A stretch of 64,000 bases of DNA from assembly GCA_035495795.1 (NCBI GenBank), contig DATJFF010000252.1, forward strand, positions 4,745 through 68,744, written 5' to 3'. Positions 640 through 54,500 of this stretch are shown here, in pieces (the first letter of the stretch is position 1; every line of letters starts with the position of its first letter). A model generated the notes under the pieces. The model did no database searches and was not told where the DNA came from. It worked only from the letters and a program-made list of their open reading frames with translations. Source of the DNA: Vicinamibacterales bacterium (GTDB lineage: Bacteria; Acidobacteriota; Vicinamibacteria; Vicinamibacterales; UBA2999). The translations under genes were made by a program, and so were the position numbers.

Positions 640-3324
640 GTGGCCCCCATGGCAAAGCAACCCCCGGCGCCGCTCGGACAGGCTACCACCATCGATCAGA
701 ATGGCCGTCGGCTTGGCAGCTACCGCACTCTATCGCTCCTCGGGCGAGGCGGAATGGGCGAAGTGTATCGTGCGCACGATGCCAGGCTCGGCCGTGACGT
801 CGCGATCAAGGTGCTTCCGGCGATCTTCGCAGAAGACGGGGAGCGGTTGGCGCGTTTCGAGAGCGAAGCGCGGATGCTTGCAGCCCTGAATCATCCTCAT
901 ATCGGTGCGATTTACGGCGTCGAGGATACCGACGGAACGCCCGCGCTCGTGCTGGAGCTTGTCGAGGGCGACACGTTGGCGGACCGGATGCGTGGCGGGC
1001 CGATACCGACGCGCGAGGCGTTGGCCATCGCGAGGCAGATCGCGGAGGCGCTCCATGCTGCGCATCGCAAGAGAATCATCCACCGAGACCTGAAGCCCTC
1101 CAACATCAAGATCACGCCAGATGGTGTGGTCAAGGTTCTCGACTTTGGCCTGGCGAAAGCGGTAGCGGAGCGTGAGGGCACCTCGACCGCGGCCGCAGCG
1201 CAGTCACCAACAACAGCGATCGATGCCACCCGTGTGGGGGTGATTCTCGGCACTGCGCCCTACATGAGCCCCGAGCAGGCGCGTGGGCTGCCAGTGGACA
1301 CACGCGCCGACATCTGGGCGTTCGGCTGCGTCCTGTACGAAATGCTTACGGGTCGCCCCCCCTTCAAGGGACAGACTGTCGCCGAGACGCTGGCCGCCAT
1401 TGTCGAGCGCGATCCAAATTGGAAGGCGTTGCCCGGTTCAACGCCGCCGCGTGTCCGGGAGCTGCTGCGCCGCTGTTTGCAGAAGGATATTGCCCTTCGT
1501 TTGGCCGATGTCGCGGAAGCACGCAACACGCTCGATCACGCGCTGCACGGGTGGAGCCGATCACGGGTCGCCGCAATCGCCGCGGCCGCGGCGGCCCTGC
1601 TCGTGTCGATCTCCGCGTGGACGTTGTTGCGTAGCGCCAGTGGCGACGGCCAAGCTATCGCGAGCACGGACTACGCGCAGGTCACGGACGTGACCGAGTC
1701 CGCTGTGGCCCCCATGTTGTCGCCCGACGGACGCATGGTCGCTTTCAAGGTCGGTGAGAACTACTTCCTTGGCGATGGGCAAATCTACGTCAAGCGTTTA
1801 CCAAGCGGTGAGTCGGTTCCGCTGACGCGCGGTCCGGGGAGCAAGTACGGTCCTGTCTTCACGCCTGACGGATCGCGCGTGGCGTATACGCAGCTCGTGC
1901 TGACCAACAGTGGTCTATCGTGGGACACGTTCACCGTGCCCGTCCTCGGCGGTGAACCGACCCCTTTGCTGGCCAACGCGTCAGGGCTCACGTTTCAGCC
2001 CAGTGGGCGCGTGCTCTTCGCAGAAATTCGCGGCGGACTGCATATGGGCATTGTCTCCGCTACCGAACGGCGTTCGGAGGCGCGCGATGTGTATTTCCCG
2101 CCGCACCAGCTCGGGATGGCGCACTTCGCACAGGCTTCACCGGATGGCAAGTGGATCCTCGTGGTGGAGATGGACCAAACGCACGCCTTTGGCCTGCCCT
2201 GTCGCCTGGTACCCGCGGACGGTGGCTCAACGGGGCGACAGGTTGGGCCGCTCGGCACCTGCACGTCTGCGGCCTGGTCAGCTGATGGGCGGTGGATGTA
2301 CTTCGGCGTCAATGTCAGCGGTCGGTCGCACCTCTGGCGCCAGCCGTTTCCCGACGGAGCGCCTGAGCAGATTACATTCGGTCCAACCGAAGAGGAAGGC
2401 GTAACGGTCGCGCCGGATGGGCACTCTCTGATTACCGCTCTCGGGATTCGTCGCAGCTCCATCTGGCTGCACAGCGCGAATGGTGAGCGGGCGATTGTGG
2501 CAGAAGGGTTTGCCCGGGCGCCGCGACTCTCGCGGGACGGCAGACGCGTTTTCTTCCTTCTTCGACCCGCGGCCGCTTCCGACACTTCGGAGCTGCGCGC
2601 GATCGATCTCGAAACGGGCGCCGTGCGGACCCTGGTTCCCGGGATCTCTGTTCTGGACTACGACATTTCAAGCGACGAGTCCGAGGTCGCCTTTACGACT
2701 CGGGAGGCCGGCGAACCCGACGTATGGATTGCCCCACTGGATCGACGAAGCCCGCCTCGGAGAATCGCGTCACGAGCTGATCAAGTGTCGTTCGGTTCTG
2801 GCGATGAACTGATCGTCCGCTCGATTGATGCTCCAGCGAACGCGATTCTGCGCATCAGCAAGGACGGAGCCCGACGGCAGCCGATCGACGCACCAGCGGT
2901 GCATGAGAAGGGTGAGGTGTCTCCCGACGGACGTTGGGTGATTGTCTACTCACCTGGATCGAGCGCAACGGAACCCGTGGCAACCTTCGCCGTGCCTGTC
3001 GCGGGTGGACCTGCGCGTCGGATCTGCCTGCCATATTGCGACGTGGGATGGTCAGCCGATGGCCGGTTTTTCAACATCGGCGTCGATCTCGATCTCGCAA
3101 CCGGCGCTCCGGGCCAGACGCTGGTGATTCCGCTCGCCGAGGCTTCGCCAGTGCCTGAGCTGCCGGGCCTGCACGCAATCTTCGAGTACGCGTCCTTGGC
3201 GAAGCAGCCCAGTGTGCGCACGCTCCTGCATGGCGGCGCATCGATCGGGTCGGATCCGACCACTTACGCATTTACGAGAGCAGAATTTCGCACCAACCTC
3301 GTTCAAATTCAACTACTGAGATAG
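640..3324 (+). CDS. serine/threonine protein kinase fused to TolB-like (PD40/WD40-like) beta-propeller repeats
   Basis: Hanks kinase motifs GRGGMGEVY, VAIK, HRDLKPSNI, DFGLAK, APYMSPEQ. One TM segment. C-terminal repeated SPDG/TPDG/APDG units. ATG at 649 is an alternative start. Confidence 0.9.
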   Translation: MAPMAKQPPAPLGQATTIDQNGRRLGSYRTLSLLGRGGMGEVYRAHDARLGRDVAIKVLPAIFAEDGERLARFESEARMLAALNHPHIGAIYGVEDTDGTPALVLELVEGDTLADRMRGGPIPTREALAIARQIAEALHAAHRKRIIHRDLKPSNIKITPDGVVKVLDFGLAKAVAEREGTSTAAAAQSPTTAIDATRVGVILGTAPYMSPEQARGLPVDTRADIWAFGCVLYEMLTGRPPFKGQTVAETLAAIVERDPNWKALPGSTPPRVRELLRRCLQKDIALRLADVAEARNTLDHALHGWSRSRVAAIAAAAAALLVSISAWTLLRSASGDGQAIASTDYAQVTDVTESAVAPMLSPDGRMVAFKVGENYFLGDGQIYVKRLPSGESVPLTRGPGSKYGPVFTPDGSRVAYTQLVLTNSGLSWDTFTVPVLGGEPTPLLANASGLTFQPSGRVLFAEIRGGLHMGIVSATERRSEARDVYFPPHQLGMAHFAQASPDGKWILVVEMDQTHAFGLPCRLVPADGGSTGRQVGPLGTCTSAAWSADGRWMYFGVNVSGRSHLWRQPFPDGAPEQITFGPTEEEGVTVAPDGHSLITALGIRRSSIWLHSANGERAIVAEGFARAPRLSRDGRRVFFLLRPAAASDTSELRAIDLETGAVRTLVPGISVLDYDISSDESEVAFTTREAGEPDVWIAPLDRRSPPRRIASRADQVSFGSGDELIVRSIDAPANAILRISKDGARRQPIDAPAVHEKGEVSPDGRWVIVYSPGSSATEPVATFAVPVAGGPARRICLPYCDVGWSADGRFFNIGVDLDLATGAPGQTLVIPLAEASPVPELPGLHAIFEYASLAKQPSVRTLLHGGASIGSDPTTYAFTRAEFRTNLVQIQLLR

Positions 3325-3441
3325 GTGGCGTGGTTCAATCCGGTAACGACGCGGAGTCGCCCAGTCATTCCGAAGTACTGGGGACTCACGACAGACTTCG
3401 AAGCGCGTTGCAGCACGTATCGAAGGGCTTTCGGACGCCGC

Positions 3442-3780
3442 CTATCGCTTGACTGCCGCACTAAATGACACCGGCATAGCGGGATCTTTAATGCTGGCAA
3501 CCGCGGCGAGCAGATCGCTCACACTGCACTGTACAGCATCGTATTCAACCTGTGCCTCATGGCCCACCAGCGTCACCGTTGCTCGGGAGACGCCTTTGAC
3601 GCTGGCCAGTGCGGACCGCACTGGTTCGACGCAGCCTTCTCAAGTCATGCCTGCGATGAGGAGGGTGACCTTCGCCAGCGGTGGCCTGGTGCCGGAGGGC
3701 TCGGTCCCAACACGCCGGTGATGGGCGCAAGCTGGGACCGAGCAGATCGCGAGGAGCAACACAGCGCGCCTGGACGGCAT
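3442..3780 (-). CDS. secreted heavy-metal-associated (HMA) domain protein with in-frame TGA at 3640-3642 (candidate selenocysteine, motif GMT-U-EGC)
   Basis: Track ORF 3640..3885(-) ends ...KVTLLIAGMT at a TGA. The same frame continues EGCVEPVRSALASVKGVSRATVTLVGHEAQVEYD... to TAG 3442-3444, which completes an HMA fold. N-terminal signal-like MPSRRAVLLLAICSVPACA. Confidence 0.6.
3606..3624 (-). promoter_or_regulatory. SECIS-like hairpin downstream of the HMA TGA
   Basis: The mRNA reads CCAGUGC-GGUCC-GCACUGG, starting 15 nt after the UGA. The loop contains GGUC, as in the E. coli fdhF SECIS apical loop. Confidence 0.5.
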
Positions 3781-3835
3781 GCCTGGACGACCCTTCCCTG
3801 GCTTCAATCGAACCCGCACCTTTCCCAGCGGCGTC

Positions 3836-4720
3836 TCAATGCTGCTGCGGGTGTGGGTGTGGCGGTAATTCAGGACACGGCGCATTTTGAGCCGTGACGC
3901 AGAAATTTCGGTCGAACCGCGTCTGTCCGGCGGGAGCGAGATTGATGATGTCGAACGCCTGCGACCCCGGAGTGCTCGCAGTCTGAATCGCTGGATTCCC
4001 GATCGCGACGTTCTCCCGAATCAGGTTGTCGCGAGCGCCCGCCCCGATGTAGATGCCATTGGTATTGCCAGAGACGGTGTTCTGCTCGATGACGTTGCCG
4101 CTGGGCGTGCCGACCAGGCCGATCCCGAAATCATCGGCGGGAACGGCATAACCATTACCGTGCGCTGCGTTCAGCCGGACCCGGCTGTTGTGGCCCAAAA
4201 TTCATATGCCGCCGCAGAGCAACCCGGCCATCGACGAGCCGTTGCCCACCGCGATATTCCCCTGGACGATGGTGTCGAACGAGGTCGCGAGTACCCGAAC
4301 ACCAGACATACAGTTCATCGACAGCGTCACGTCCTCGATGCGCGTGTTTCTCGAGCCCGTGACTGTGATCCCATCTCCGCGAAATCTCTGGACCAAACCC
4401 GGCCCGCGGACCACGACACCGGACATGTTGGCGGTGGTGATACCTGCCTCGCCTGGTGTGGCAGCCCCACCGCAAGCCGTTACGGCATCACCGCGACCCG
4501 TGATCCTAAAACCATTCAGTCGCAATTCGACGTTGGGCGCGCCAAACGAGAAACACGGCGTTCCGGCTCCAACCTCGCACGTCACGTCGCCGACCAGTTC
4601 GGTGTCTTCGACGATGACAAATGTTCTTGTGAGTGTTCCGCTCACGCGGTCGTCGGCGAAGGCAGCCGACGCGACAAGGACGCTTCCGGCGAGCACCGCA
4701 ACCGCAACGATTGGACGCAT
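3836..4720 (-). CDS. secreted right-handed parallel beta-helix (PbH1/NosD-like) repeat protein with in-frame TGA at 4202-4204 (candidate selenocysteine)
   Basis: Track ORFs 4202..4726(-) and 3836..4198(-) are in the same frame and separated only by TGA + ATT. N.I..N..GN..GI-type repeats continue on both sides. Signal peptide MRPIVAVAVLAGSVLVASAAFA. The second ATG (4720) has better spacing from the AAGGAGG SD. His/Pro-rich tail PPHPHPQQH. Confidence 0.6.
4172..4187 (-). promoter_or_regulatory. SECIS-like hairpin downstream of the beta-helix TGA
   Basis: The mRNA reads CAGCCG-GGUC-CGGCUG, starting 14 nt after the UGA. 6-bp GC stem with a GGUC tetraloop. Confidence 0.5.
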
Positions 4721-4896
4721 GGACATGCCTCCTTTTCACGGTTCAGGGGACTACGGCGGGAAAACGGCGCGAGTATAGGCGAATTGCAGAGTTGCGTCTA
4801 GCCCCGCCCTCGCCTCCCGCTTTGGCCACTTGGTAGACCGGAAATGGCGGGTAGGAACTCGCCTATACTGCGGGTCGTCGCCGGGGAGCAACGCTG

Positions 4897-5484
4897 ATGG
4901 CATCAATCCGAGCAACGACCGTTTCCGCGATCGGCCGCTTCGCCTGGTCGGGCAGGAACATCGGCGTATTGATGCTCTTAGCTATCCTGCCACTGCACGC
5001 GGGCGGCATTCAGCCCCCTGCTCCTGACCCTTTCGCTCGCGTGAGTTTCCTGGTCGGTCGTTGGGAAGGAACCTCTGAGGGGCAGCCCGGCGCGGGGAAG
5101 GTCACCCGCGAGTACAGCCTAACGCTGAATCGAAAGTTCATCCGCGTACAGAACCGCAGCGAATACCCGGTCCAGGACAAGAACCCCAAGGGCGAAATTC
5201 ACCAGGACGAGGGTTTCATCAGCTTCGACCGTAGCCGAAAGAAGCTGGTGCTTCGACAATTTCACGTCGAAGGGTTCGTCAATCAATACGTGGAGGACGA
5301 TTCGTCGTTTCCAAGCCACATCGTTTTCACGACGGAATCGATCGAAAATATTCCAGCCGGCTGGCGGGCCCGGGAAACGTACGTCGTGCTTGGGCCGGAC
5401 GAGTTCGAGGAAGTCTTCGAACTGGCCGAGGACGGCAAGTCGTTCCAGCTCTATTCGCGAGCGCGGCTCAAGCGGATTCGCTGA
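4897..5484 (+). CDS. hypothetical secreted protein (lipocalin/DUF1579-like beta-barrel guess)
   Basis: Long ORF with hydrophobic N-terminus. The FLVGRWEGTSEG... pattern resembles small beta-barrel families, but the family is not certain. Confidence 0.55.
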   Translation: MASIRATTVSAIGRFAWSGRNIGVLMLLAILPLHAGGIQPPAPDPFARVSFLVGRWEGTSEGQPGAGKVTREYSLTLNRKFIRVQNRSEYPVQDKNPKGEIHQDEGFISFDRSRKKLVLRQFHVEGFVNQYVEDDSSFPSHIVFTTESIENIPAGWRARETYVVLGPDEFEEVFELAEDGKSFQLYSRARLKRIR

Positions 5485-5533
5485 CCGTTCCGCCGGCTCG
5501 GGCTAACGGCCCTCACTGGGGCCGACAGGGTCC

Positions 5534-5564
5534 TTGACCCTGGAACGATTCCAGGGCGTAGGGT
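5534..5564 (+). promoter_or_regulatory. MerR-type operator-promoter (TTGACC - 19 nt spacer containing dyad - TAGGGT)
   Basis: TTGACC 5534-5539. Perfect dyad CCCTGGAA-CGA-TTCCAGGG 5538-5556. TAGGGT 5559-5564. GGAGG SD 5571-5575 precedes the ATG at 5583. A second overlapping dyad CAGGGTC-CTT-GACCCTG lies at 5526-5542. Confidence 0.6.
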
Positions 5565-5582
5565 AGCCCTGGAGGTTCAAAC

Positions 5583-6071
5583 ATGGTTGTCACACGGTGT
5601 CTCATCGGTGTCGTCGTCACGGCGCTCACCATCTCGCTTGCGTCGGCACAAGAGCATCACGCGTCAATGGACCAGCGAGGCGCCACGGTGATGGGGTTTG
5701 ACCAGGCGCTAACGACACATCAGTTCGTCCTCTTCACGGACGGCGGCGCCATCGATGTCAGCGTCAAGGGCACATCGGACACGAAGAATCGAGACGCGAT
5801 CCGTACACACCTCCCGCACATTGCCACGATGTTTGGTGACGGCAACTTCGATTCGCCGATGCTCGTTCACGACTCGACGAATGTGCCTGGCACTCGAACG
5901 ATGGCCGATCGCAAGTCGACGATTCGTTATCAGTACGTGGAGACGCCGGCGGGTGGCCGAGTTAATATCGTCACGACTGACCCGGATGCGTTGGCGGCAG
6001 TGCATGCCTTTCTTCGCTTCCAGATCGCGGATCATCATACGGGCGATTCCACAACAGTGCGAAAGAGATGA
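5583..6071 (+). CDS. hypothetical periplasmic protein (His-containing termini), co-transcribed with MerR regulator
   Basis: Signal peptide ...LTISLASA|QEHH. Its stop overlaps the start of the next gene (ATGA at 6068). Confidence 0.6.
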   Translation: MVVTRCLIGVVVTALTISLASAQEHHASMDQRGATVMGFDQALTTHQFVLFTDGGAIDVSVKGTSDTKNRDAIRTHLPHIATMFGDGNFDSPMLVHDSTNVPGTRTMADRKSTIRYQYVETPAGGRVNIVTTDPDALAAVHAFLRFQIADHHTGDSTTVRKR

Positions 6072-6556
6072 GCACTTCGCTGGGACCACGCGACGTGGCG
6101 GACGCAACCGGCGTCAGTACGGACACACTTCGGTATTACGAACGCAAAGGACTTCTGCCACCTCCCGCTCGCAGCTGTGCAGGCTATCGGCGGTATCCGC
6201 CCTCGGCTGTCGAGCGCGTGCTGTTGATCCAGCGTGCGCTCGTTGTCGGGTTCACACTTGGCGATCTGAAGCGAGTGCTGACGTTGCGAGACCGTGGCGG
6301 AGTACCGTGTCAAGGCGTCCGTGAATTGGTCGGCACCCGCCTGCAGCAGTTAAATGACCGCATCGATGAACTCACGGCGCTGCGGGAGGAATTGCAGCAG
6401 CTGTTAGCGGAATGGGACGATCGGCTCGCAGAGACACCGAGCGGGAAGCGGGCGCACCTCTTGGAGACACTGGGTTCAAAACCCCTGATCGAGACCGCCC
6501 GCCACCGTCGTCGTGCTGTGAAGCGGAACGTCTATCGCGAACGGTCGACGCGATAG
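6068..6556 (+). CDS. MerR family transcriptional regulator
   Basis: N-terminal HTH: VADATGVSTDTLRYYERKGLLPPPARSCAGYRRY. Followed by a coiled-coil dimerisation helix. Confidence 0.85.
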   Translation: MSTSLGPRDVADATGVSTDTLRYYERKGLLPPPARSCAGYRRYPPSAVERVLLIQRALVVGFTLGDLKRVLTLRDRGGVPCQGVRELVGTRLQQLNDRIDELTALREELQQLLAEWDDRLAETPSGKRAHLLETLGSKPLIETARHRRRAVKRNVYRERSTR

Positions 6557-6589
6557 CGCGGCCCATCGAGTGATCCAGCTCAACACCCA

Positions 6590-6870
6590 CCGCCTAGCCG
6601 TGGAATGGGACGTGATCGAGCGCATGCGGTGTGGAATGGGCAGACGTGGATTTCGTGAAAGGGCAACTCTGCGTACAGGGGTCCGACTGGCAGGGCACGT
6701 CACCAGCCCGAAGGGCAGCCGGCTCCGCTAACGTCCCGTTGACGCTTACACCTCAGTCCCGCGGCCACCGTAAACGCGATTCGGCTGCTCGACGATCGTC
6801 AAACGACCGGAGATTTTGGAGACATGTTGGAGACGGGGGAGAGCCGATCCAGAAGTGCAATCGGCTCAAT
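6590..6870 (+). pseudogene. decayed tyrosine recombinase/integrase fragment
   Basis: Pieces in different frames: VEWADVDFVKGQL, GHVTSPKGSRLR-stop, VPLT, and a C-terminal-like ...EILET. Interrupted by stops and frameshifts. Lies next to the att-like repeat. Confidence 0.45.
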
Positions 6871-6875
6871 CAGTT

Positions 6876-6899
6876 AGGTGGTGGAGGCGGCGGGAGTTG
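6876..6899. repeat. 24-bp direct copy of the tmRNA 3' end (att-like site)
   Basis: AGGTGGTGGAGGCGGCGGGAGTTG is identical to 6968-6991. Confidence 0.85.
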
Positions 6900-6967
6900 T
6901 ACTGCCTGGCGGCGGAGCCGCCGGCTGATCTAGACGACTGCCGACGAACACGACCTGAGCGAAGCGA

Positions 6968-6991
6968 AGGTGGTGGAGGCGGCGGGAGTTG
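6968..6991. repeat. 24-bp partner copy; most of it (6971-6991) is the tmRNA 3' end itself
   Basis: Identical 24-mer. Covers the acceptor/T-arm end of ssrA. Confidence 0.85.
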
Positions 6992-7326
6992 AACCCGCGT
7001 CCGAGAAAACGTCGTCGCAGACCGCTACGTGCGTGTCCCCATTCTGATGTCGCGACCGGTTGAGAACGAGGCCAACATCCCCGGCCGCCATCCCCGAACA
7101 ATCTCATCGTCCCGAGTCGAGGCAGCTCGTGACGACCAGCCCGCTTGATGACGGTCATCCCCGTGCCGCAGGCACTCACGGGGCGACCGCTCACTGGTTA
7201 TTAAGCAGCGAGAGCGTAGTCTGCGTTCGCAGTTACGTTGTGTTCCACCGCAGATTTACGAGGTGAGATGGAGTACTCGGCACGCGCTCCACGATCCCGC
7301 ATCCCCGTCGAAGCCAGGTCGCCCCC
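6971..7326 (-). ncRNA. ssrA: tmRNA (transfer-messenger RNA)
   Basis: 5' GGGGGCGACCUGGCUUCGACGGGGAU... and 3' ...GGACGCGGGUUCAACUCCCGCCGCCUCCACCA. G3:U wobble in the acceptor stem. Tag reading frame GCG AAC GCA GAC TAC GCT CTC GCT GCT TAA TAA = ANADYALAA. Confidence 0.92.
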
Positions 7327-7352
7327 ACGTGGTCAGTCGTTGACGCTCCTTG

Positions 7353-7361
7353 ATTGTACCA
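7353..7361 (-). promoter_or_regulatory. extended -10 box TGGTACAAT upstream of ssrA
   Basis: Reverse complement of ATTGTACCA. Lies 26 nt upstream of the mature tmRNA 5' end. Confidence 0.5.
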
Positions 7362-7691
7362 CTGCACCCGACCTCGACCGTGGGTGCCCGGTTCTGCCTG
7401 TTCCCGCGAACCGCACCGGCGGGGCGGGTCACGGTTCGGCGCAACGCTGCCCGCGGTCTCCACCCGGAGGTGTCGGTCAGATGGGTGAGCGCCGATACAT
7501 GGATGCGAGGAATTTCGGACGAGGTTCGGGAGCGCTCGGCAGTCGTGACGCGCGTGCCGTTACACGTGGCTGCGTGTCTTGACTTGAACGATCCGCTGCC
7601 CCGATAATTGTGAAGCTCGTACGGACGCACGCGCTCCCAGCCGCGGCCCGAGTCCTCTGAGGCTGTACAACCTTTTTCAGAGAGAGACATC

Positions 7692-8708
7692 GTGCTCGAA
7701 GACCGCATCCGTACGTCCGTGGACCAGGCCGTCCAGGCGCTGGTATCGGATCTGCTGTCCATCCACACCGACGCAACTGCCCGTCAGCTCGACGAGGCTG
7801 CGGAACGCCTCCGCGAAAGCGAGCGGGGCCGCGCCGAGCTGGAACAGAAACTCGCCGAGGCCGACGGGGCACGCGAAGCTGCCATCGACGAAGCGGTGCG
7901 TGCCGCGGTCGAGGGGGAGGCCGTGCGGCATGCGGCGCGCGTCGAAGACCAGATCCGAGCCTTGCATGAGCAGCATGCCGCGGCCATTGCGGCAATCCAG
8001 GGCGAGGCGGCGCGCCATACGGCTCAGGCCGGTGAGCAGATGCGTACCTTGCACGATGAGCACACCGCCGCCCTTGCCGCTGTCGAAGCCCGAGCCATAG
8101 CCGAGACGAAGGCGTCGATCGATGCCGCCCGGGTCGGCGAACGCGAGGCGGAGATGGCTGGCTTCACGCGTCTGGTCGAGAGCGTCCGTGGGCTCGACGG
8201 CGCAACATCGCTCAGCGAGGTGCTCGACGCGCTGGCGCTGGCCGCGGCGCGGGAAGCGGCTCGAGCCGCCGTCGTGGTGGTGAAAGGCGACCACATCGTG
8301 GGGTGGCGGCTGTCGGGTTTCGGCGCGCGAGACGCCCAACCGAAATCCGTCGATCTGCCGCTGGTCGAGGCTGGCGTGATCGGCGCGGCCGCCTCGTCGT
8401 CTCGCCCGGCAACGACCCAGAGCGGCGCGGACGGTCCCGGATTCGAGCATCTGCCCGAGGACCGGATGGGGCTGGCCATGCCCGTGCTGGTCGGCGGCCG
8501 GGTCGTGGCAGTCGTCTACGCCGACGGCGTGAGCGGCGGCGAGCAGGATCACATCGTGCCGAACCCGTGGCCCGAGGCGATCGAAGTGCTGGCCCGGCAC
8601 GCCGGCCGATGCCTCGAGGCCTTGACCGCCCAGAGAGTGGCGGCGCCGGCGCGGTCGAGTGCCCAGTCCGGAGTGGTAACCCCCGCCCCGTCCGGAGCCG
8701 TGGGATGA
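7692..8708 (+). CDS. hypothetical coiled-coil protein with GAF-like C-terminal half
   Basis: Long ORF with a tandem ~29-aa internal repeat (GEAVRHAARVEDQIRALHEQHAAAIAA / GEAARHTAQAGEQMRTLHDEHTAALAA). Its stop overlaps the slt start (ATGA). Confidence 0.55.
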   Translation: MLEDRIRTSVDQAVQALVSDLLSIHTDATARQLDEAAERLRESERGRAELEQKLAEADGAREAAIDEAVRAAVEGEAVRHAARVEDQIRALHEQHAAAIAAIQGEAARHTAQAGEQMRTLHDEHTAALAAVEARAIAETKASIDAARVGEREAEMAGFTRLVESVRGLDGATSLSEVLDALALAAAREAARAAVVVVKGDHIVGWRLSGFGARDAQPKSVDLPLVEAGVIGAAASSSRPATTQSGADGPGFEHLPEDRMGLAMPVLVGGRVVAVVYADGVSGGEQDHIVPNPWPEAIEVLARHAGRCLEALTAQRVAAPARSSAQSGVVTPAPSGAVG

Positions 8709-10879
8709 ACTGGCGCGCGGCAGTAGCCGCCGCGGCTGGAATCGTTGCCGGCGTGCTGCTCGCCGCACCGCGTCCGTCCGCCCAGACAATTGCCGTTTCC
8801 GCGAACGGCGCGCCGACCCCTCGCCTCGAGCCCACGGCGCACGCACCCGTTCCGTCAGACCTGAACGCGTTCTGGTTTGCGCCAGCCAGGGGCGCAACGC
8901 TGTCTCCCGCACTCACCGGGTTCGTGAAGGGCGTTCGATTGCTCGATGAGGAGAACAAGCCCGAGCTCGCACTGCCGCTCTTCAACCAGAAGGCGCTCGC
9001 CTCCACCTCGGTCGCGGAATACGCGCGGTTCTACACCGCGAAGGCCCAGCTGGCGCTCCACCGTTACGCCGAGGCGGAGGCCGCGTTTGCGGCGCTGGCC
9101 GGCAGCAACATCCAGGGGCATCTTCCCGAGGACGCGGCTCTCGGAGAAGCCGAATCCAAAGAGGCGCAGCTCGATTTCGCCGGCGCGGTGGCCGTGTACG
9201 AACGGCTGGTGCAGCGCAAGCTGGCCGCCCCGCAAGTCGCGCTCTGGCGTCTCGCGGTGGCCGCGCAGCGCAACGGCGATCAACCGAAAGCCGTCGCCGC
9301 GTATCGCCGGGTGTATTTCGAGTATCCCCTGTCCCCTGAGGCGAGCCAGTCCGAAGACGCGCTGACGAAGCTGAACGCCTGGAACGAGGACGAACCGGAC
9401 GTCGCGGTCGAACTGAAGCGGGCCGACGCCCTCTTCCAGGCGCGTCGGTGGAATGACGCCCGCGCGTCCTATGAGCGCGCTCGTCATGCCGCCAGCGGCG
9501 CGGAGCGCGATCGCGTCGACGTGCGGATGTCGGCGTGCGACGTTCAGATGAAGCGCTTCCGGCCGGCCCTCGAACCGCTGAAAGGGCAGCGGGCCGGCGC
9601 CTACGGTGAGGAAGCCGCGTTCTTCTACCTGAGCGCCCTGCGCGGCACGGGCGAAAAAGCGGACTACGAGCGCGAGGCCCGGATCTTCGCCGACAGCCAT
9701 CGTGAAAGCCCGTACGCCGAGGACGCGCTCAACAACCTCGCATCGCATTTTATCGTGGCCGACGAGGACGAACACGCCGAAGAGGTGTTCCGCCTCCTGC
9801 TCGAGCGTTATCCGGCCGGCCGCTTCGCCGAGCGGGCCTACTGGCGGGTTGGCTGGTGGGCGTACCGCGACGGTCAATTCCAGGAGGCGGCCACGCTGTT
9901 CGACCGTGGCGCGGCACAGTTCCCGCGATCCGACTATCGCCCCTCGTGGCTGTACTGGAGCGGCCGCGCCTGGCAGGGTGCCGGGCAGCGCGCGCTGGCC
10001 GACGAACGCCTCGTGCTCACCGCGACCGACTACTACAACAGCTATTACGGGCGACTCGCCCGCCAGCACCTGAGCGCCGGCCGCGTGCAGGCGATCGGCA
10101 CAGCCGTCACCCGCGCGGCGGCACCGGAAACCACGTCGTTCCCGACCGGGACGCGTGTCGCGGAACTGATTGCGGTCGGACTCCATCGGGAGGCCCTGAA
10201 CGAACTGCAATACGCGCAACGGATCTGGGGCGACTCGCCGCAGCTGACTGCGACGATCGCGCTCGTGCACAACCGGCTGGGCAACCTGCGGCTCGGGATC
10301 AACGCGATGAAGCGCGCGTATCCGCAGTGGATGGCAGCCGGCGGCGAGACGCTGCCGGTCGAGATTCAGCGGGTCGTTTTCCCGATCGACTACTGGCCGC
10401 TCATCCAGAAGCACGCCGCCGCCCACGGGCTGGACCCCTTTCTGATCGCGGCGCTCGTCGCCCAGGAATCGACGTTCGATCCCGTCATCCGCTCCTCGGC
10501 AAACGCGGTCGGGCTGATGCAGGTGCTGCCCTCGACCGGACGGCAGTTCGCCCGCAAAATGAAGATTCCGCGCTACACGCCGTCGCGCCTGACGGATCCG
10601 GAGACGAACGTCCGGCTCGGCACCGCCATCTTCGCGGACAGCATCAAGCGGTTCGGCGGGGTTCATTTCGCGCTGGCGGCCTACAACGCCGGTGATCATC
10701 GGGTAGCGGCGTGGCTGCGCGAACGTCAGGGGATGGACCAGGACGTTTTCATCGATGACATCCCATTCCCCGAAACGCAGAACTACGTGAGGCGGATCCT
10801 CGGGACGGCCGAAGACTACCGTCGCCTGTACGGGTCGACCGCGCAGAAGCCGCAACCGGCGCGGACCGAAGGGCGCTGA
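8705..10879 (+). CDS. slt: soluble lytic murein transglycosylase (Slt70-like, TPR/superhelical N-domain + SLT domain)
   Basis: Signal peptide MNWRAAVAAAAGIVAGVLLAAP. C-terminal SLT motifs ALVAQESTFDP, GLMQVLPSTG, AYNAG. The track ORF 8303.. has a spurious N-extension. Confidence 0.85.
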   Translation: MNWRAAVAAAAGIVAGVLLAAPRPSAQTIAVSANGAPTPRLEPTAHAPVPSDLNAFWFAPARGATLSPALTGFVKGVRLLDEENKPELALPLFNQKALASTSVAEYARFYTAKAQLALHRYAEAEAAFAALAGSNIQGHLPEDAALGEAESKEAQLDFAGAVAVYERLVQRKLAAPQVALWRLAVAAQRNGDQPKAVAAYRRVYFEYPLSPEASQSEDALTKLNAWNEDEPDVAVELKRADALFQARRWNDARASYERARHAASGAERDRVDVRMSACDVQMKRFRPALEPLKGQRAGAYGEEAAFFYLSALRGTGEKADYEREARIFADSHRESPYAEDALNNLASHFIVADEDEHAEEVFRLLLERYPAGRFAERAYWRVGWWAYRDGQFQEAATLFDRGAAQFPRSDYRPSWLYWSGRAWQGAGQRALADERLVLTATDYYNSYYGRLARQHLSAGRVQAIGTAVTRAAAPETTSFPTGTRVAELIAVGLHREALNELQYAQRIWGDSPQLTATIALVHNRLGNLRLGINAMKRAYPQWMAAGGETLPVEIQRVVFPIDYWPLIQKHAAAHGLDPFLIAALVAQESTFDPVIRSSANAVGLMQVLPSTGRQFARKMKIPRYTPSRLTDPETNVRLGTAIFADSIKRFGGVHFALAAYNAGDHRVAAWLRERQGMDQDVFIDDIPFPETQNYVRRILGTAEDYRRLYGSTAQKPQPARTEGR

Positions 10880-10900
10880 ACGGGCGGGACGTCAAGTCAA

Positions 10901-10942
10901 GGCAGAAGGCAGAAGGCAAAAGGCAAAAGGCAAAAGCAGAAA
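10901..10942. repeat. GGCARAA heptamer tandem array (about 6 units)
   Basis: GGCAGAA GGCAGAA GGCAAAA GGCAAAA GGCAAAA GCAGAAA, between convergent genes. Ends at the stop codon at 10943. Confidence 0.9.
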
Positions 10943-12541
10943 TCAGCGGCGCAGTGTGTACAGCCGGAGGCCTGCGTCGTCGCCCACGCGCTCGAGTTCT
11001 GGCGACTGCTCGATGGCCTCGACTTGTTCCGCTGGCCAGTCCTTCGTGTGCACCATCACGTGAGTGACGCCAACCGCCCGCATCTCTTCGAGCACTGCGG
11101 CTGACGGGAATGCACGCCACCTGGCAGCGCGCTCCCTGGATGCGGCGCTCTCGAACCCGCTATAGCCGTTCACGAGCGGCCGAAAGTGGTGCGTGGCCGC
11201 GACCATGTAGCGCGCGTTTTCGCTCACCGACGGTCCGCCGTAGAGAGGTATCTCCACGAGAACGGCGACGTCCGCTCGACGCAACCCGTCGTAGATTGCG
11301 GGAGTAACCGGTACGCCCGCGAACCCCATTGGCGTCCGGAGCGCCTCAAGGGTGGGAACGGCCAGAAGGATCAGGGCCGCCGCCGGCCAGTAGGTACTGC
11401 GGTCCCATCGCCGTTGCAGCGCCGCCGTCGTGTAGCCGGCGATGATGGCAATCGCCATCAGCGGCAGCACTCCCCAGCGGGCCGCCCCGCGAAGGCCGGT
11501 GAAGAGCGGTACGTGCTCGTGGATCCAGGCATAGCCCGGCATCGCCGGTCCGAACGACAGCGCGAGCCCGATCAGACCGGCGGCTCCACTCATCCACACC
11601 CGCCGATCGCGGCGAACCTCGGGGAACGCGATCGCCGCACAGGCCAGAAGCGTTGCCGCGATCCCGGGGAACAGCGCCGTCCGCCCCTCGAACCAGCGAT
11701 GACTCCACAGCGCGTAGTGAAATCGCCCGCCGGTCGCGAGGTAGTCGGCCCAGGTGGCGGAGTAGAGCGCGACTTCATCGAGCGGCCGGTTCAGCCCCTG
11801 CTCGCGGCTGACGATGTAGTACGGCCAGAGAAAAGGGATGAGCAGGGCGATCGATACAAGGGCCGCGGCACTCAGCGCGGCAATGGTGTGCGGGCGCGGC
11901 GGCCAGAGCCACTCGCCGGCGCGGACCGCGGCGCCGGTCAGGAGCGCGACGCTCATGAACACCAGCGTGTAGTTGGAGCAGAGCGCCTGGAGGACGAACG
12001 CAGACGCCAGCAGCACAGTTGCGCGGCGCCCGCCGCTGCCTCTTATCAGCCGGTCCAGCGCCAACAGCGCCAGTGGAAAGAACTCGAGGTGCAGTGCCTG
12101 CAGGTGCACGAGCCGGGTCAGCAGGTGCGCGTTGAACGCGTACAGCATCCCCGCGATCACCCCGCCAAGCGTGCTGCCCGTCCATCCGGTCATGACCAGC
12201 GCCATCGCCCACCCCGAGAGGGCGAACCCGGCCAGCACGAGGATGTTGTAAACGGTGATCGGCGAGACTCCGGCCCACATCAACGGCGCGCCCATCATCG
12301 ACGGGACCAGCATGTGCTCCGAATAGGCCAGCGTGTGGTGCTCGGGGAAGAAGATCGGCGCTTCGAACAGCGCGAGCGGGTTCCTGGGGACGATGTGCGC
12401 GACCCACGAGATGACGAACACGTTCAACCCGCCATCATCGTTGTCGAGCCGCGAGAGGCCCGAGAGGTCGCCCGCCAACGGCCACGTGTGCAGGACGGCC
12501 AGGCCGCCGAAGAGTACGAGCAGCAGGAGGCCGCGGCGCAT
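10943..12541 (-). CDS. GT-C-fold (ArnT/PMT-like) integral membrane glycosyltransferase-like protein, paralog 1
   Basis: Multi-TM. First-loop acidic motif LDNDDG. Shares AFSE, YAFNAH, HLQ, PLVNGYSGF blocks with the two upstream paralogs. Confidence 0.65.
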   Translation of the reverse strand: MRRGLLLLVLFGGLAVLHTWPLAGDLSGLSRLDNDDGGLNVFVISWVAHIVPRNPLALFEAPIFFPEHHTLAYSEHMLVPSMMGAPLMWAGVSPITVYNILVLAGFALSGWAMALVMTGWTGSTLGGVIAGMLYAFNAHLLTRLVHLQALHLEFFPLALLALDRLIRGSGGRRATVLLASAFVLQALCSNYTLVFMSVALLTGAAVRAGEWLWPPRPHTIAALSAAALVSIALLIPFLWPYYIVSREQGLNRPLDEVALYSATWADYLATGGRFHYALWSHRWFEGRTALFPGIAATLLACAAIAFPEVRRDRRVWMSGAAGLIGLALSFGPAMPGYAWIHEHVPLFTGLRGAARWGVLPLMAIAIIAGYTTAALQRRWDRSTYWPAAALILLAVPTLEALRTPMGFAGVPVTPAIYDGLRRADVAVLVEIPLYGGPSVSENARYMVAATHHFRPLVNGYSGFESAASRERAARWRAFPSAAVLEEMRAVGVTHVMVHTKDWPAEQVEAIEQSPELERVGDDAGLRLYTLRR

Positions 12542-22970: not shown

Positions 22971-23987
22971 CTACGCTCGTGGCTCCCGGAAGTGCTCGAA
23001 GCCGGACGGCCAGGCGTGGGCCTCACCATTCCGGACCAGAACCAACTCCTTTTCGCGCGTGAGCGCGCCGATGCGCGTCAACGCCGGCCTCGTGACCCGT
23101 TGCACAACGTGCCTGAGGCGCCCACTCCATCGTCTCGGGATCGCGAGCAGCAGCTCGTAATCCTCACCCCCGGCGACCGCGGCGGACACGACGTCCTGTC
23201 CACGGCCGGCCCACCAGTCGCGCGCGCCAGCCTCCACCGGAACAGCCTCGGCGTCAACTCGCGCGCCGCACCCGCTGGCGTGTGCCAGCTGCCTCACCGC
23301 GTCGGCCAGGCCATCGCTCACATCCATCGCGGCGCGTGCCGCGCTCCCTCTTGCCAGTGCCACCCCGAGCCGCACGCGTGCCTCGGGACGTCGATGTCTC
23401 GAGAGGCAGGCGGCCAGGCCGGGAGATTTCGCTGCCACGTCTGCCTGGTCACGCAGCATCTCGAGTCCGGCACGCGCCCCTCCGACGGCGCCGCTCAGCC
23501 ACAGTTCGTCACCTGCTTTCCCACCGCTCCGCGTCAGCCATTTCCGAGGCGATACCTCGCCGCCGGCGGCCACGTCCACGACGAGCGGTCCAGGACTGCG
23601 GGTGATGTTGCCCCCGGCGACAGACACGCCATGCGCGGCGGCGAGTCCGGCCAGTCCGCTCATGAGCGCCTCGGCGGCATCCACCGGGTAGGTGGGGGGG
23701 AGTGCCAGCGAGACGAGTGCCCAGCGAGGAACGGCGCCCATCGCCGCCAGATCGCTGAGGTTGACGGCGAGCGCCTTGTGCCCGATGTCCGCCGGGCTGC
23801 TCCAGGCGGACGAGAAGTGCACGTCCTCGACGAGCGCGTCCGTGGTCAGGACCAGGCGAGTCCGGCGTCCCGGCTCGATCACCGCGGCGTCGTCACCCGG
23901 CCCGACCAGAATCTGGGCCCCCGGTCGGGGCAGACGCGCCAGCAGGCGCGCCAGCAGGGCGTGTTCGCCCAGATCCGAAACCGTCAC
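22971..23987 (-). CDS. thiL: thiamine-monophosphate kinase
   Basis: GDDAAV, TTDALVEDVHF, IGHKALAVNLSDLAAMGA, AIR-synthase-like fold pattern. GTG start. Confidence 0.85.
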   Translation of the reverse strand: MTVSDLGEHALLARLLARLPRPGAQILVGPGDDAAVIEPGRRTRLVLTTDALVEDVHFSSAWSSPADIGHKALAVNLSDLAAMGAVPRWALVSLALPPTYPVDAAEALMSGLAGLAAAHGVSVAGGNITRSPGPLVVDVAAGGEVSPRKWLTRSGGKAGDELWLSGAVGGARAGLEMLRDQADVAAKSPGLAACLSRHRRPEARVRLGVALARGSAARAAMDVSDGLADAVRQLAHASGCGARVDAEAVPVEAGARDWWAGRGQDVVSAAVAGGEDYELLLAIPRRWSGRLRHVVQRVTRPALTRIGALTREKELVLVRNGEAHAWPSGFEHFREPRA

Positions 23988-23989
23988 AA

Positions 23990-24180
23990 AAGAGAACGTC
24001 CCGCGTTGCCGTGTGGGGAGGATTGCTGAACCTGCATAAGCAGGTGGAGCCGCTGTAAGAGCCGCGCTTCAGGCTTCCTCTACCACGGAGGCATGCACAC
24101 CACGCGGCCGTCGCAACTCGCTTGGGTTTTACGTTGGCTCAGACAAGCCTCCGAAACCATCACGAACAACGCAGGACTGC
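23990..24180 (-). ncRNA. ssrS: candidate 6S RNA
   Basis: Non-coding gap between zapA and thiL. TGGTACAAT extended -10 box. 5' CCUGCGUUG pairs with 3' CAACGCGGG and continues as an interrupted closing stem (CGUG/CACG, UGG/CCA, GGAGG/CCUCC, UUG/CAA, CUGA/UCAG). A-rich unpaired strand AACGUAAAACCCAAG. Small hairpin CCUGC-UUAU-GCAGG. U-rich tail. Ends are +/-10 nt. Confidence 0.4.
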
Positions 24181-51588: not shown

Positions 51589-54500
51589 ATGTTCGCAGAC
51601 GTCTTCATCAAGCGGCCGGTCCTCTCGACGGTCTGCTCGCTGCTCATCATCCTCGCCGGCGCGATCTCGATCCCGATTCTGCCGATCGCGCGCTACCCGG
51701 AACTGGCGCCGCCGGCGGTATCGGTGACGGCGTTCTACACCGGCGCCAACGCCCAGACGGTCGAGAGCGCGGTGACCACGCCGCTCGAGCAGGTGATCAA
51801 CGGCGTCGAGGGCATGACCTACATGACCTCCTCGTCGACGAACTCCGGCATCTCGACGATCACGGTCACCTTCGACATTTCGCGAAACCAGGACCTGGCT
51901 GCCGTCGACGTCCAGAACCGCGTCAACTCGGCGCTCGGGCGAATGCCGGCCGATGTCCGCACCAACGGCATCACCGTCACCAAGGTGACCGCCGGGTTCA
52001 TGGGCGGTATCGGCTTCTTCAGCAAAGACAACCGCTACAGCAACCTCTACATCAGCAACTACCTCGATCTCTACGTCCGCGACGCGATCAAGCGCGTTCC
52101 GGGGGTCGGCGACGTCATCATCTTCGGCGAGCGCCGCTACGCGATGCGCCTGTGGCTCGATCCGAGCCGGCTGGCCGCAAGGCGGCTCACCGCGAGCGAC
52201 GTACTCAACGCCCTGCGCGAGCAGAACGTGCAGGTCGCGGCCGGAGCGCTCGGCGATCAGCCGGCCGAAGAAGGGCAGATGTTCACGATGAGCGTCCGCG
52301 CAGTCGGACGTCTCACCGAAGTCCAGGAGTTCGAGAACGTCGTCGTCCAGACCGGCGCCGACGGGGCCATGGTCCGCGTCAAGGACATCGGCAGGGTCGA
52401 GCTCGGCGCCGAGCAGTACGCCGCGAACTTGCGCTTCCTCGAGCTCGAGGCCTCCGGCATGGGCATCACGCTGCTGCCGACCGCCAACGCGCTCGACGTC
52501 TATCGGGGCGTGATGGAGACGATGGCCCGCCTCGAGCCGAGCTTCCCGCCCGGGCTCGAGTGGCGGCTCGCCTTCGACAACGTCAGCGTGGTCCGCGAGT
52601 CGATCGTCGAGGTGCTGAAGACCCTCGGCGAGGCGATTGTCCTGGTCATCATCGTGATGTTCCTGTTCCTCCAGAACTGGCGCAGCACGATCATCCCGGC
52701 GGTCACGATTCCGGTATCACTGGTCGGCACCTTCGCATTCATCAAGCTGTTCGGCTTCTCGATCAACACCCTGACGCTCTTCGGCATCGTCCTCGCCACC
52801 GGCATCGTGGTGGACGATGCGATCGTGGTGATCGAAAACATCGAGCGCCACATGGCCGAGTTCCACAAGTCGGCCAGACGGGCGGCGATCGATGCGATGC
52901 GCGAGGTGTTCGGCGCGGTCGTGGTCATCGGCATCGTGCTGGTGTCGGTGTTCGTGCCTGTTGCGTTCTTCCCCGGTGTGACGGGACGGCTCTATCAGCA
53001 GTTCTCGCTCACCATCGCGTTTGCTGTGGTCCTGTCGGTCTTCAACGCGGTGACGCTGACGCCGGCCCTTTCGGCGCTGCTGCTCGACAAGGAGCACCAC
53101 GCGCACGGCCGGATCTTCGGCGGCATCAACTGGGTCATCGACGGAGGCACTCATCTCTACGTCAGGCTGGTCCGCGGCGCGCTGCGGCTGCGCTACGCGA
53201 TGCTCATCCTGTTCGCCGGCGGGCTGTGGGCCACCTACACCCTGCTGCAGGTCGTGCCAACGGCGTTCGTCCCAGAGGAGGACGAGGGATTCCTGATCTG
53301 TATCGTGCAGGCCCCGGCTGGCGCGTCGCTCGAATACACGACCGAGATCGCGAAAAAGGCGGAGAAGATCCTTTACGCTGACCCGGACATCGCCGCGGCG
53401 TTCTCGGTGATGGGCTTCAGCTTCTCAGGGGCGGCGCCGAACAACGGGCTGATCTTCACCCGCCTCAAGGAGTACAAGGAGCGGCCGGGGGCCGAGCACT
53501 CGCTGCGCGCCGTGCTGAATCGGATCAGCGGTCCGCTGTTCATGATTCCGGGCGCGATCGTCGTGGCCTTCCCGCCGCCCGCGATCCAGGGACTGTCCAC
53601 GTTCGGCGGCTTCCAGTTCGAGGTGCTGGACCAGACCAACAACCCCGACATCAATGGCCTTGCCCAGGCGACGTTCGGGATGATCGGCGCCGGCAACCAG
53701 AGCGGCCAGGTGCAGGGACTGTTCAGCGGGTTCCGCGCCGACGATCCGCAGCTGATCGTCGAGATCGACCGCGACCGCGCGCGCAGCCTCGGGCTGCCGC
53801 TGCGCGAAGTGACCGACGCGATGCAGGTATTCCTCGGGTCGTCGTACGTCAACGACTTCGATTTCAACAATCGCGCCTACCGCGTCTACGCCCAGGCCGA
53901 TCAACGGTTCCGCGCGCACCCCGAGGACCTGCGACAGATCTACGCGCGGGCTTCCGACGGCCAGATGGTCCCGCTCGACACGGTGGTCCGGCTCCGCGAG
54001 ACGACCGCGCCCCAGGTGATCAGCCACTTCAACCTGTTCCGCTCGGCGGAAATCACCGGCAACCCTGCTCGCGGCCAGAGCTCGGGTCAGGCGCTTCAGG
54101 CAATGGAGCGGTTGGCCGGGCAGACGCTGCCGCCGGGGTTCACGTTCGCGTGGGCCGGGCAGTCGCTCGAAGAAATCAAGGCCGGCTCGCAGGCCGGTGC
54201 AATCTTCGGCCTGTCGGTGATCATCGTTTACCTCGTGCTGGCGGCACAGTACGAGAGCTGGGTGCTGCCGTTCATCATTCTGCTCGGCGTGCCGCTCGCG
54301 ATTCTGGGAGCGCTGTCGGCGCAGCTGCTTCGCGGGCTGGCCAATGACGTGTTCTGTCAGGTCGGCCTCGTGCTGCTGATCGGTCTGGCGGCCAAGAACT
54401 CGATCCTGATCGTCGAGTTCGCGGAGCAGATGCGCGAGCGCGGCATGTCGATCATCGACGCCGCCGTGGAGGCCTCGCGGATCCGCCTGCGGCCAATCCT

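Follow-up and report, generated by a model that had tools for sequence, protein, structure and literature searches.

To our knowledge, nearly all known selenoproteins are redox enzymes, and only computational predictions have so far pointed to selenocysteine (Sec) as a ligand for metals in trafficking proteins. A 2026 catalogue of 119 prokaryotic selenoprotein families contains three that are relevant here, namely a UxxU metal-binding protein (NF041115), a UxxC cation-transporting ATPase, and a putative mercuric transport protein. The first of these, catalogued as UxxU with two Sec residues, was first predicted in the metagenome of an Olavius symbiont and is named 'putative mercuric reductase' in the literature. 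NCBIfam also holds a model for a MerT/CopZ fusion selenoprotein (NF045683), which lies outside the entries of the 2026 catalogue. We analyzed a stretch of 64,000 nucleotides (the window) from a Vicinamibacterales bacterium of the Acidobacteriota (GenBank assembly GCA_035495795.1, contig DATJFF010000252.1, positions 4,745 to 68,744 of the forward strand), in which a first-pass annotation made from the sequence alone had proposed that a small gene for an HMA metal-binding domain encodes a selenoprotein, noting that metal-handling proteins with Sec had appeared in computational surveys. That remark agrees with the HMA-type UxxU and UxxC families listed in the catalogue. HMA-type selenoproteins are, in other words, already known; what is new, as far as the sequence can indicate, is an exported, stand-alone U-x-x-C form linked to a second selenoprotein candidate. 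We consider it likely that the UGA of this HMA gene is read as Sec under the direction of a selenocysteine insertion sequence (SECIS) and that the product is an exported U-x-x-C metal-binding protein.

The gene lies on the minus strand at 3442..3780 and comprises 112 codons including the UGA (ATG 3780-3778, TAG 3444-3442). Read from 3885 or from 3780, its frame runs through ...KVTLLIAGMT to TGA 3642-3640, continues as EGCVEPVRSALASVKG...AAVKR (in full, EGCVEPVRSALASVKGVSRATVTLVGHEAQVEYDAVQCSVSDLLAAVASIKDPAMPVSFSAAVKR), and closes at TAG 3444-3442; translation confirmed this arrangement, which the first-pass annotation had described as an open reading frame (ORF) stopping after KVTLLIAGMT and resuming in the same frame. 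The best-supported start is the ATG at 3780, in keeping with the coordinates proposed earlier (3442-3780); it stands behind a Shine-Dalgarno-like GGGAAGGG and is aligned with the starts and Shine-Dalgarno-like sites of close homologs. The product with Cys put at the TGA scored 48.8 bits with Pfam HMA (PF00403; E 9.4e-13; gathering score, 24.8), aligning to positions 1-59 of the 62 in the profile. This match runs across the TGA, so that the earlier description of a complete HMA domain reading GMT-[UGA]-EGC holds. In the loop after the first beta-strand, GMT-U-EG-C, the in-frame UGA (3640..3642, minus strand) takes the first Cys position of GMTCxxC and is the proposed Sec codon.

At its N-terminus, the predicted protein has a signal peptide, MPSRRAVLLLAICSVPAC (3727..3780, minus strand), with a twin-arginine motif and a conserved Cys18 that ends the hydrophobic stretch. 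A twin-arginine pair near the N-terminus was found throughout the close clade of HMA homologs (six aligned sequences, the window included) and also in two of the more distant homologs, L028 and L029, while L021 and L023 carry a textbook S-R-R-x-F-L motif. The Cys that closes the hydrophobic stretch (Cys18 of the window protein) is likewise conserved in all six close sequences. Twin-arginine translocation (Tat) and lipoprotein signal features of this kind are generally taken to mark exported proteins. The HMA protein is probably exported by the Tat route as a lipoprotein or periplasmic protein, with lipid anchoring suggested by the signal motifs.

Among the NCBIfam models, NF041115 was the best for the window protein as well as for all of its shortened relatives, and the two share a stand-alone HMA fold with Sec, as predicted, in the metal loop. 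However, the window protein scored 51.5 bits and its homolog on contig L001 63.5 bits against a cutoff of 95. Moreover, NF041115 has U-x-x-U with two Sec residues, whereas the window protein would have U-E-G-C with one, and the latter is distinguished further by its twin-arginine signal peptide, which lies outside the 74-position model, and by its link to a beta-helix gene. The cation-transporting ATPase E1-E2 selenoprotein carries the same U-x-x-C substitution in an HMA-type motif, and PDB sequence searches returned the metal-binding domains of Cu-ATPases as the closest solved relatives of the window HMA domain. In that ATPase, however, the HMA domain forms the cytoplasmic N-terminus of a large P1B-type pump, whereas the window protein is free-standing, only 112 codons long, and has no ATPase nearby. 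MerP (TIGR02052) and CopZ (NF033795 and related models) have the fold and the GMTCxxC loop in common with the window protein, and MerP is also a periplasmic HMA protein with a signal peptide, which passes a soft metal to a partner. Yet both families use Cys rather than Sec, and the window protein scored 37-46 bits against cutoffs of 85-95 (for MerP, 37.1 bits against 92.55). No merT or merA was found in its neighborhood, nor was copA, and CopZ, unlike a protein with an export signal, is cytoplasmic. Because of the sub-cutoff scores to NF041115, MerP, and CopZ, the single Sec in U-x-x-C, and the lack of an ATPase fusion, we classed the predicted product as a separate, exported, stand-alone U-x-x-C variant of the HMA proteins.

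Homologs of the HMA gene came from several sources. When the Cys-substituted full-length protein was searched against 5.8 billion proteins, a single match was returned, a C-terminal fragment of 62 aa. On its contig (L001), the codon in question is again TGA; the frame extends upstream of it into a signal peptide, and the hairpin described below is present with one A-U to G-U change. An exhaustive HMMER search was also run with a profile of the C-terminal 65 residues against 1.84 billion cluster representatives. Its best clusters were all ORFs beginning at a GTG inside the hairpin, and about 20 of the best 150 matches were ORFs of 54-92 aa whose first residue aligned to this GTG (M/V-[RQ]-S-A-L...). 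The distant homologs L027, L028, and L029 were found from such ORFs, and on the DNA all three showed a signal peptide followed by U-x-x-C (GMT-TGA-AGC in L027, GMS-TGA-GSC in L028, and GMT-TGA-EGC in L029). Four further Sec-form loci (L016, L020, L021/L022, and L023) were found by following the neighboring beta-helix gene. Scans of contigs with peptide patterns gave mostly distant Cys-form HMA genes, because the patterns contained Cys, and were useful for L010 alone. The nine distinct homologs are thus L001, L016, L020, L021, L023, the near-identical L010, and the more distant L027, L028, and L029.

The TGA was present at the same codon in all nine of these homologs, which come from other assemblies (six of them close), and no other disabling mutation was seen in any. 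The codon of the second ligand was TGC or TGT in all ten sequences (the window, L010, and the eight other homologs). Canonical HMA relatives have Cys at the UGA column, e.g., GMTCEGCVE in L002 and L003, and so do P0256 and P0181, which supplies the Cys/Sec pair that the first-pass annotation had advised looking for; no Cys-form member of the close clade was found in either database search. Could the TGA be a misread or misassembled TGC or TGT? One base change would indeed yield an ordinary CxxC HMA protein. However, L010, a separate JGI metagenome contig, is 99.87% identical to window positions 804-4630, with four single-nucleotide polymorphisms and one indel over 3.8 kb, and these five differences leave both TGAs, that of the HMA gene and that of the beta-helix gene, in place. 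An assembly error is therefore ruled out, and the eight further distinct homologs, from different samples and assemblers, have TGA too. We regard the error explanation as effectively refuted by the independent assemblies and its probability as negligible.

A true stop at the TGA would imply either a pseudogene or two separate products, i.e., a 46-aa signal-peptide fragment and a 59-aa HMA remnant starting from GTG 3621. This is how gene callers annotate the locus, as two pieces, and ORFs of 59-62 aa named 'copper chaperone CopZ' are found in public collections; by itself, the 59-aa piece scored 26.2 bits, just over the Pfam HMA threshold. Such a piece, however, would be without beta-strand 1 and the entire metal loop. 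A pseudogene would also be expected to gather frameshifts, whereas the TGA is invariant across nine divergent lineages with no second lesion. In the six close sequences, it is invariant while pairwise synonymous divergence is 0.35-0.70, near saturation. The ratio of nonsynonymous to synonymous divergence (dN/dS) in this clade was 0.06-0.34 downstream of the TGA and 0.23-0.70 upstream, compared with the value near 1 expected of a pseudogene. Finally, the six codons from the TGA to the internal GTG encode EGCVEP in every sequence of this clade, yet with synonymous differences (GAA/GAG, GGC/GGA/GGG, and CCA/CCG). They are therefore translated, which excludes re-initiation at the GTG. The decaying pseudogene that the first-pass annotation had named as an outcome that would refute its proposal thus found no counterpart among the relatives, and termination at the TGA, in either form, seems to us highly improbable.

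The proposal that the UGA is read as Sec draws further on the RNA that follows it. A SECIS-like stem-loop lies at 3606..3624 (minus strand), with CCAGUGC (3624-3618) and GCACUGG (3612-3606) enclosing GGUCC (3617-3613); its position 15 nt past the UGA, its stem, and its loop are as first reported. The 7-bp stem starts 15 nt, and the 5-nt apical loop 22 nt, from the UGA. Folded by itself, the stem-loop has an energy of -12.2 kcal/mol, and the same nucleotides code for P-V-R-S-A-L-A. Like the Escherichia coli fdhF-type SECIS and the bacterial SECIS (bSECIS) consensus, the hairpin sits just 3' of the UGA within the coding sequence and has a small loop starting GG-U. The published bSECIS model has a loop of 3-9 nt, a stem of 4-16 bp, G in the first two loop positions, a UGA spacing of 16-37 nt, and a minimum free energy of -7.5 kcal/mol or lower (PMC13188914), and the hairpin agrees with it on every count. 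Taken alone, the hairpin is only moderately unusual. In the coding ORFs of the window, a Watson-Crick stem of at least 7 bp with G in loop positions 1-2 and a spacing of 16-37 nt follows 1.7% of in-frame codons, or 0.5% if the loop has to start with GG or GU, and the 61-nt fold around the hairpin has a z-score of -1.26.

It is because of the comparative evidence, and not of the hairpin alone, that the structure exceeds chance. In the close clade, all cells of the 7-bp stem pair, with two pairs changed one-sidedly (A-U/G-U and G-C/G-U), and a rare GCA codon, whose A pairs with U in the stem, is invariant in the six sequences. Across eight sequences, the window included, 92% of stem cells were paired and the core 6 bp always so. 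Two compensatory pair changes appeared on adding L016, L027, and L028, one from C-G to G-C at the base and one from G-C to A-U at the top, and the covariation score for the eight sequences was equalled by 1 of 500 shuffles. The likeness to bacterial SECIS elements that had been seen in the window alone is thereby extended to a conserved structure with two compensatory changes. Together, the conservation of the UGA, the purifying selection on both sides of it, the Cys/Sec pair, and the hairpin support the original suggestion of a selenoprotein.

The neighboring gene is built along the same lines. Upstream of the HMA gene and separated from it by 55 nt, a gene at 3836..4726 (minus strand; 296 codons including one in-frame UGA) is predicted to encode a secreted parallel beta-helix protein with PbH1 repeats and constitutes a second selenoprotein candidate. 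Its UGA (4202..4204, minus strand) falls in a C-G-G-I-U motif (...AGLLCGGI-TGA-ILGHNSRVRLN...) and is followed by a second SECIS-like stem-loop (4172..4187, minus strand; CAGCCG / GGUC / CGGCUG; -9.2 kcal/mol), the stem 14 nt and the loop 20 nt from the UGA, so that a GGUC-type loop occurs at nearly the distance seen in the HMA gene. Pfam Beta_helix and NosD matches span the TGA, and an AlphaFold2 model of a Cys-form homolog was a beta-helix with pLDDT 85 and pTM 0.82. A weak sigma-70-like promoter match 5' of the gene (4772..4800, minus strand; 9 of 12 consensus positions; one site against 0.3 expected) may be the promoter of a two-gene operon.

We found 482 clusters of beta-helix homologs and inspected the best 120. 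Among these, 66 were about 172-177 aa long and ended exactly at CGGI, i.e., at least 66 clusters (90% identity) end exactly at the UGA codon. Of the full-length homologs in the same best 120, 35 had Cys at the UGA column, 6 had Trp, 2 had Glu, and 1 had Gly; Ser or Thr occurred there in just 8, all of which had also lost the upstream Cys. The TGA at the same codon and a 20-nt hairpin core, AACAGCCGGGTCCGGCTGAA, were identical in seven distinct loci, while flanking synonymous sites varied. The beta-helix gene adjoins the HMA-Sec gene in six distinct loci (window/L010, L001, L016, L020, L021/L022, and L023), in tandem in the window and L020 and divergently in L001, L016, L021/22, and L023. Each gene also occurs without the other, the beta-helix gene in L017-L019 and the HMA-Sec gene in L027-L029. 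The nearest full-length homolog of the beta-helix protein, P0002 (272 aa, 70-75% identity, from a JGI contig of 2042 bp), lacks some 22 residues, the entire C-G-G-I-U turn among them, either through a true deletion of the Sec-bearing rung or through an artifact of gene calling or assembly.

The described protein that the beta-helix partner most readily calls to mind is NosD (TIGR04247 / PF05048), which is also secreted and has PbH1 repeats, and to which the partner scored 43 bits with the Pfam model, above its gathering score. With the NCBIfam NosD model, however, it scored 25.7 against a cutoff of 300, and it is without nosZ, nosF, nosY, or nosL neighbors. NosD was not among the 50 best-ranked structural matches of the beta-helix protein, whose neighbors were generic beta-helix proteins such as tailspikes and alginate epimerases, and the label 'NosD-like' would therefore overstate the relationship. 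Copper delivery of the NosD/NosL type was accordingly rejected for the gene pair, given the score far below the cutoff, the lack of nos context, and the generic structural matches. The 2026 catalogue has no entry for the beta-helix family, NCBIfam no model dedicated to it, and the PDB no sequence match; nor was an account of a beta-helix selenoprotein family found in the searchable literature. We therefore put this family forward as a candidate new selenoprotein family, and as the more novel lead of the two.

Several observations weigh against Sec decoding, or at least against leaning on the hairpins. No selA, selB, selC, or selD is present in the 64-kb window. No Rfam SECIS family matched positions 3300-10000 at E<=10, which sets the HMA hairpin apart from the fdhF-type SECIS and the bSECIS consensus; bacterial SECIS elements are, however, poorly covered in Rfam. 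Within the close clade, the changes in the HMA hairpin are one-sided (wobble) only, and both compensatory changes are contributed by the more distant L027 and L028. This hairpin also overlaps the strongly conserved peptide PVRSALA, so that its nucleotide conservation is partly protein-level, and invariant fourfold sites (3 of 6 in hairpin codons versus 4 of 22 elsewhere) are suggestive but not significant. In the beta-helix family, the Cys-form (TGC) genes L024 5001-5840 and L026 635-1531 keep the identical 20-nt core AACAGCCGGGTCCGGCTGAA, while the Ser-form gene L025 5001-5885 is without it. Conservation of the beta-helix hairpin is therefore not specific to UGA forms, and it failed as a marker of Sec versus Cys. 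The core in the Cys forms may be a fossil SECIS left by a recent Sec-to-Cys conversion, or it may be constrained otherwise.

Two apparent components of Sec machinery in the window were rejected. A tRNA-SeC called by ARAGORN (anticodon UCA; 9355-9446, minus strand) lies antisense within the slt/TPR coding sequence, and the Rfam tRNA and tRNA-Sec models gave no match at E<=10 in a 201-nt search. A gene of the AIR-synthase family (22971-23987, minus strand) was considered as selD, but it scored 297.8 bits as thiL and 77.9 bits as selD, against a cutoff of 125.

Support for Sec decoding in the lineage is indirect. Of the 46 ORFs in the window that are confidently coding, 25 end in TGA, among them slt, pheT, rplT, and cstA. 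A reassigned code, which the first-pass annotation had called unlikely on the ground that TGA is an ordinary stop elsewhere in the window, is therefore excluded. The window was also scanned systematically for further ORFs interrupted by TGA, and no other convincing candidate emerged. On the related 43-kb contig L029, a peroxiredoxin/AhpC-TSA gene (10830-11380) has TGA 11040-11042 at the peroxidatic Cys (AKAFTSG-U-TADC) and, 21 nt past it, a 7-bp hairpin with loop CGUGA; it is annotated as a 70-aa fragment. This gene likely encodes a selenoprotein of the Prx type, from the same group of organisms. The peroxiredoxin family (TxxU) is among the selenoprotein families verified by experiment, and selenoproteins have been recorded in Acidobacteria. 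These records, the predicted Sec-type peroxiredoxin of L029, and the use of TGA as a normal stop together lend indirect support to Sec decoding in the lineage.

An alternative is that the UGA is read through by a route other than Sec, by a near-cognate tRNA-Trp, a Cys tRNA of the selC* type, or an acidobacterial allo-tRNA acting as an opal suppressor, with Trp, Cys, or Ser as the residue. Acidobacteria do have allo-tRNAs, which are proposed nonsense suppressors, and in other phyla the selC* tRNA-Cys is a mimic of tRNA-Sec. Six full-length beta-helix homologs have Trp (TGG) at the UGA column, and the window, as noted, has no Sec machinery. However, Trp or Ser would ruin the metal-binding pair of the HMA loop, and the UGA falls exactly at the Cys column in the HMA gene, the beta-helix gene, and the L029 peroxiredoxin. 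A hairpin of the bSECIS type stands at the same distance in these three gene families, whereas a general suppressor would need none; an efficient one would, moreover, be costly where TGA ends 25 of 46 genes. Neither the window nor 13 related loci yielded an allo-tRNA or any other tRNA of unusual type. On balance, we consider non-Sec reading improbable, though somewhat less so than a true stop.

If the UGA is indeed decoded as Sec, events at the locus might run as follows. The hairpin at 3624-3606 would act as a bacterial SECIS once the ribosome meets UGA 3642-3640, recruiting SelB·GTP·Sec-tRNASec so that Sec would be inserted instead of termination taking place. In the mature HMA protein, a U-x-x-C metal loop would then replace the usual C-x-x-C, and the twin-arginine signal and Cys18 would place the protein outside the cytoplasm, where it would probably be anchored to lipid. 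Compared with Cys, Sec has a lower pKa and a higher affinity for Cu(I) and Hg(II), and a Se-S bond is more easily re-reduced. Soft metals such as Cu(I) or Hg(II) might accordingly be bound more tightly by a selenolate/thiolate pair than by a dithiol, and the pair might be easier to re-reduce in an oxidizing compartment; it is because of this chemistry and the roles of MerP and CopZ that we propose soft-metal binding. The HMA protein and the beta-helix protein with its C-G-G-I-U site would probably be a hand-off pair. In all of this, our confidence in the specific function of the HMA protein is lower than our confidence in Sec decoding.

A broader proposal joins three elements: a two-selenoprotein extracytoplasmic module, which would be a new selenium-dependent system for soft metals or chalcogens in soil Acidobacteriota; a large, uncatalogued family of beta-helix proteins; and a broad family of U-x-x-C HMA proteins with signal peptides. 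Besides the beta-helix clusters that end at the UGA codon, about 20 HMA-type clusters (50% identity) are apparently split at the UGA in a like manner (three checked on DNA), and these include lower-GC lineages. For the proposal as a whole, we see the case as evenly balanced.

Beyond the beta-helix partner, the neighbors of the HMA loci gave no consistent functional clue, and gene content varied among the loci. L028 has MacB/OEP efflux genes, L029 has genes for a Fur-like protein and a peroxidase, and L023 has ChrB. Convergent to the HMA-Sec gene of the window, a Ser/Thr protein kinase fused to PD40/Tricorn beta-propeller repeats is encoded at 640-3324 (plus strand). L029 encodes a kinase of this architecture too (8167-10779), again convergent to the HMA gene and overlapping its 3' end, and so does L023 (9345-11905, within 8 kb); the recurrence may reflect either synteny or a functional link. 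On the other side, 2.3 kb from the HMA gene, lies a MerR-family regulator of the metal-sensor type (6068-6556, plus strand), which is without C-terminal Cys ligands and scored about 80-90 bits, under the cutoff in every case, with the models for MerR, CadR, ZntR, and CueR. A gene for an unknown secreted protein of 162 aa (5583-6071, plus strand) runs 4 nt into the start of the regulator gene.

The window also contains a genuine tmRNA gene (6971-7326, minus strand; 174.8 bits; tag ANADYALAA), while a second, 'permuted' tmRNA call by ARAGORN at 6281-7066 looks spurious. The 4.5 kb past the 3' end of the tmRNA gene (2500-7000), which hold both selenoprotein candidates, have 60-62% GC, compared with 66-71% elsewhere, and this segment may be a genomic island inserted at ssrA. 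Farther away, a gene for 6S RNA (23994-24180, minus strand; 87.6 bits) lies between thiL and zapA, and a 1485-aa ORF at 51589-56046 (plus strand) joins a complete AcrB/RND transporter (residues 1-1025) to an outer-membrane efflux protein (OEP) domain (1318-1481), which is either an unusual fusion or the product of a missed stop or frameshift.

The locus offers a clear and well-conserved case of a probably exported HMA protein in which a U-x-x-C site is predicted. It also reveals that public annotation systematically splits this gene into ORFs of 46 aa and 59 aa and names the latter 'CopZ'. The beta-helix family, if true, would add a fold other than thioredoxin, the beta-helix, to the selenoproteins, and the two genes provide concrete proteins in which Sec and Cys could be compared as ligands. 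Acidobacteriota are a dominant but poorly understood group in soil, and the gene pair points to selenium-dependent handling of metals outside the cytoplasm in its soil-dwelling members.

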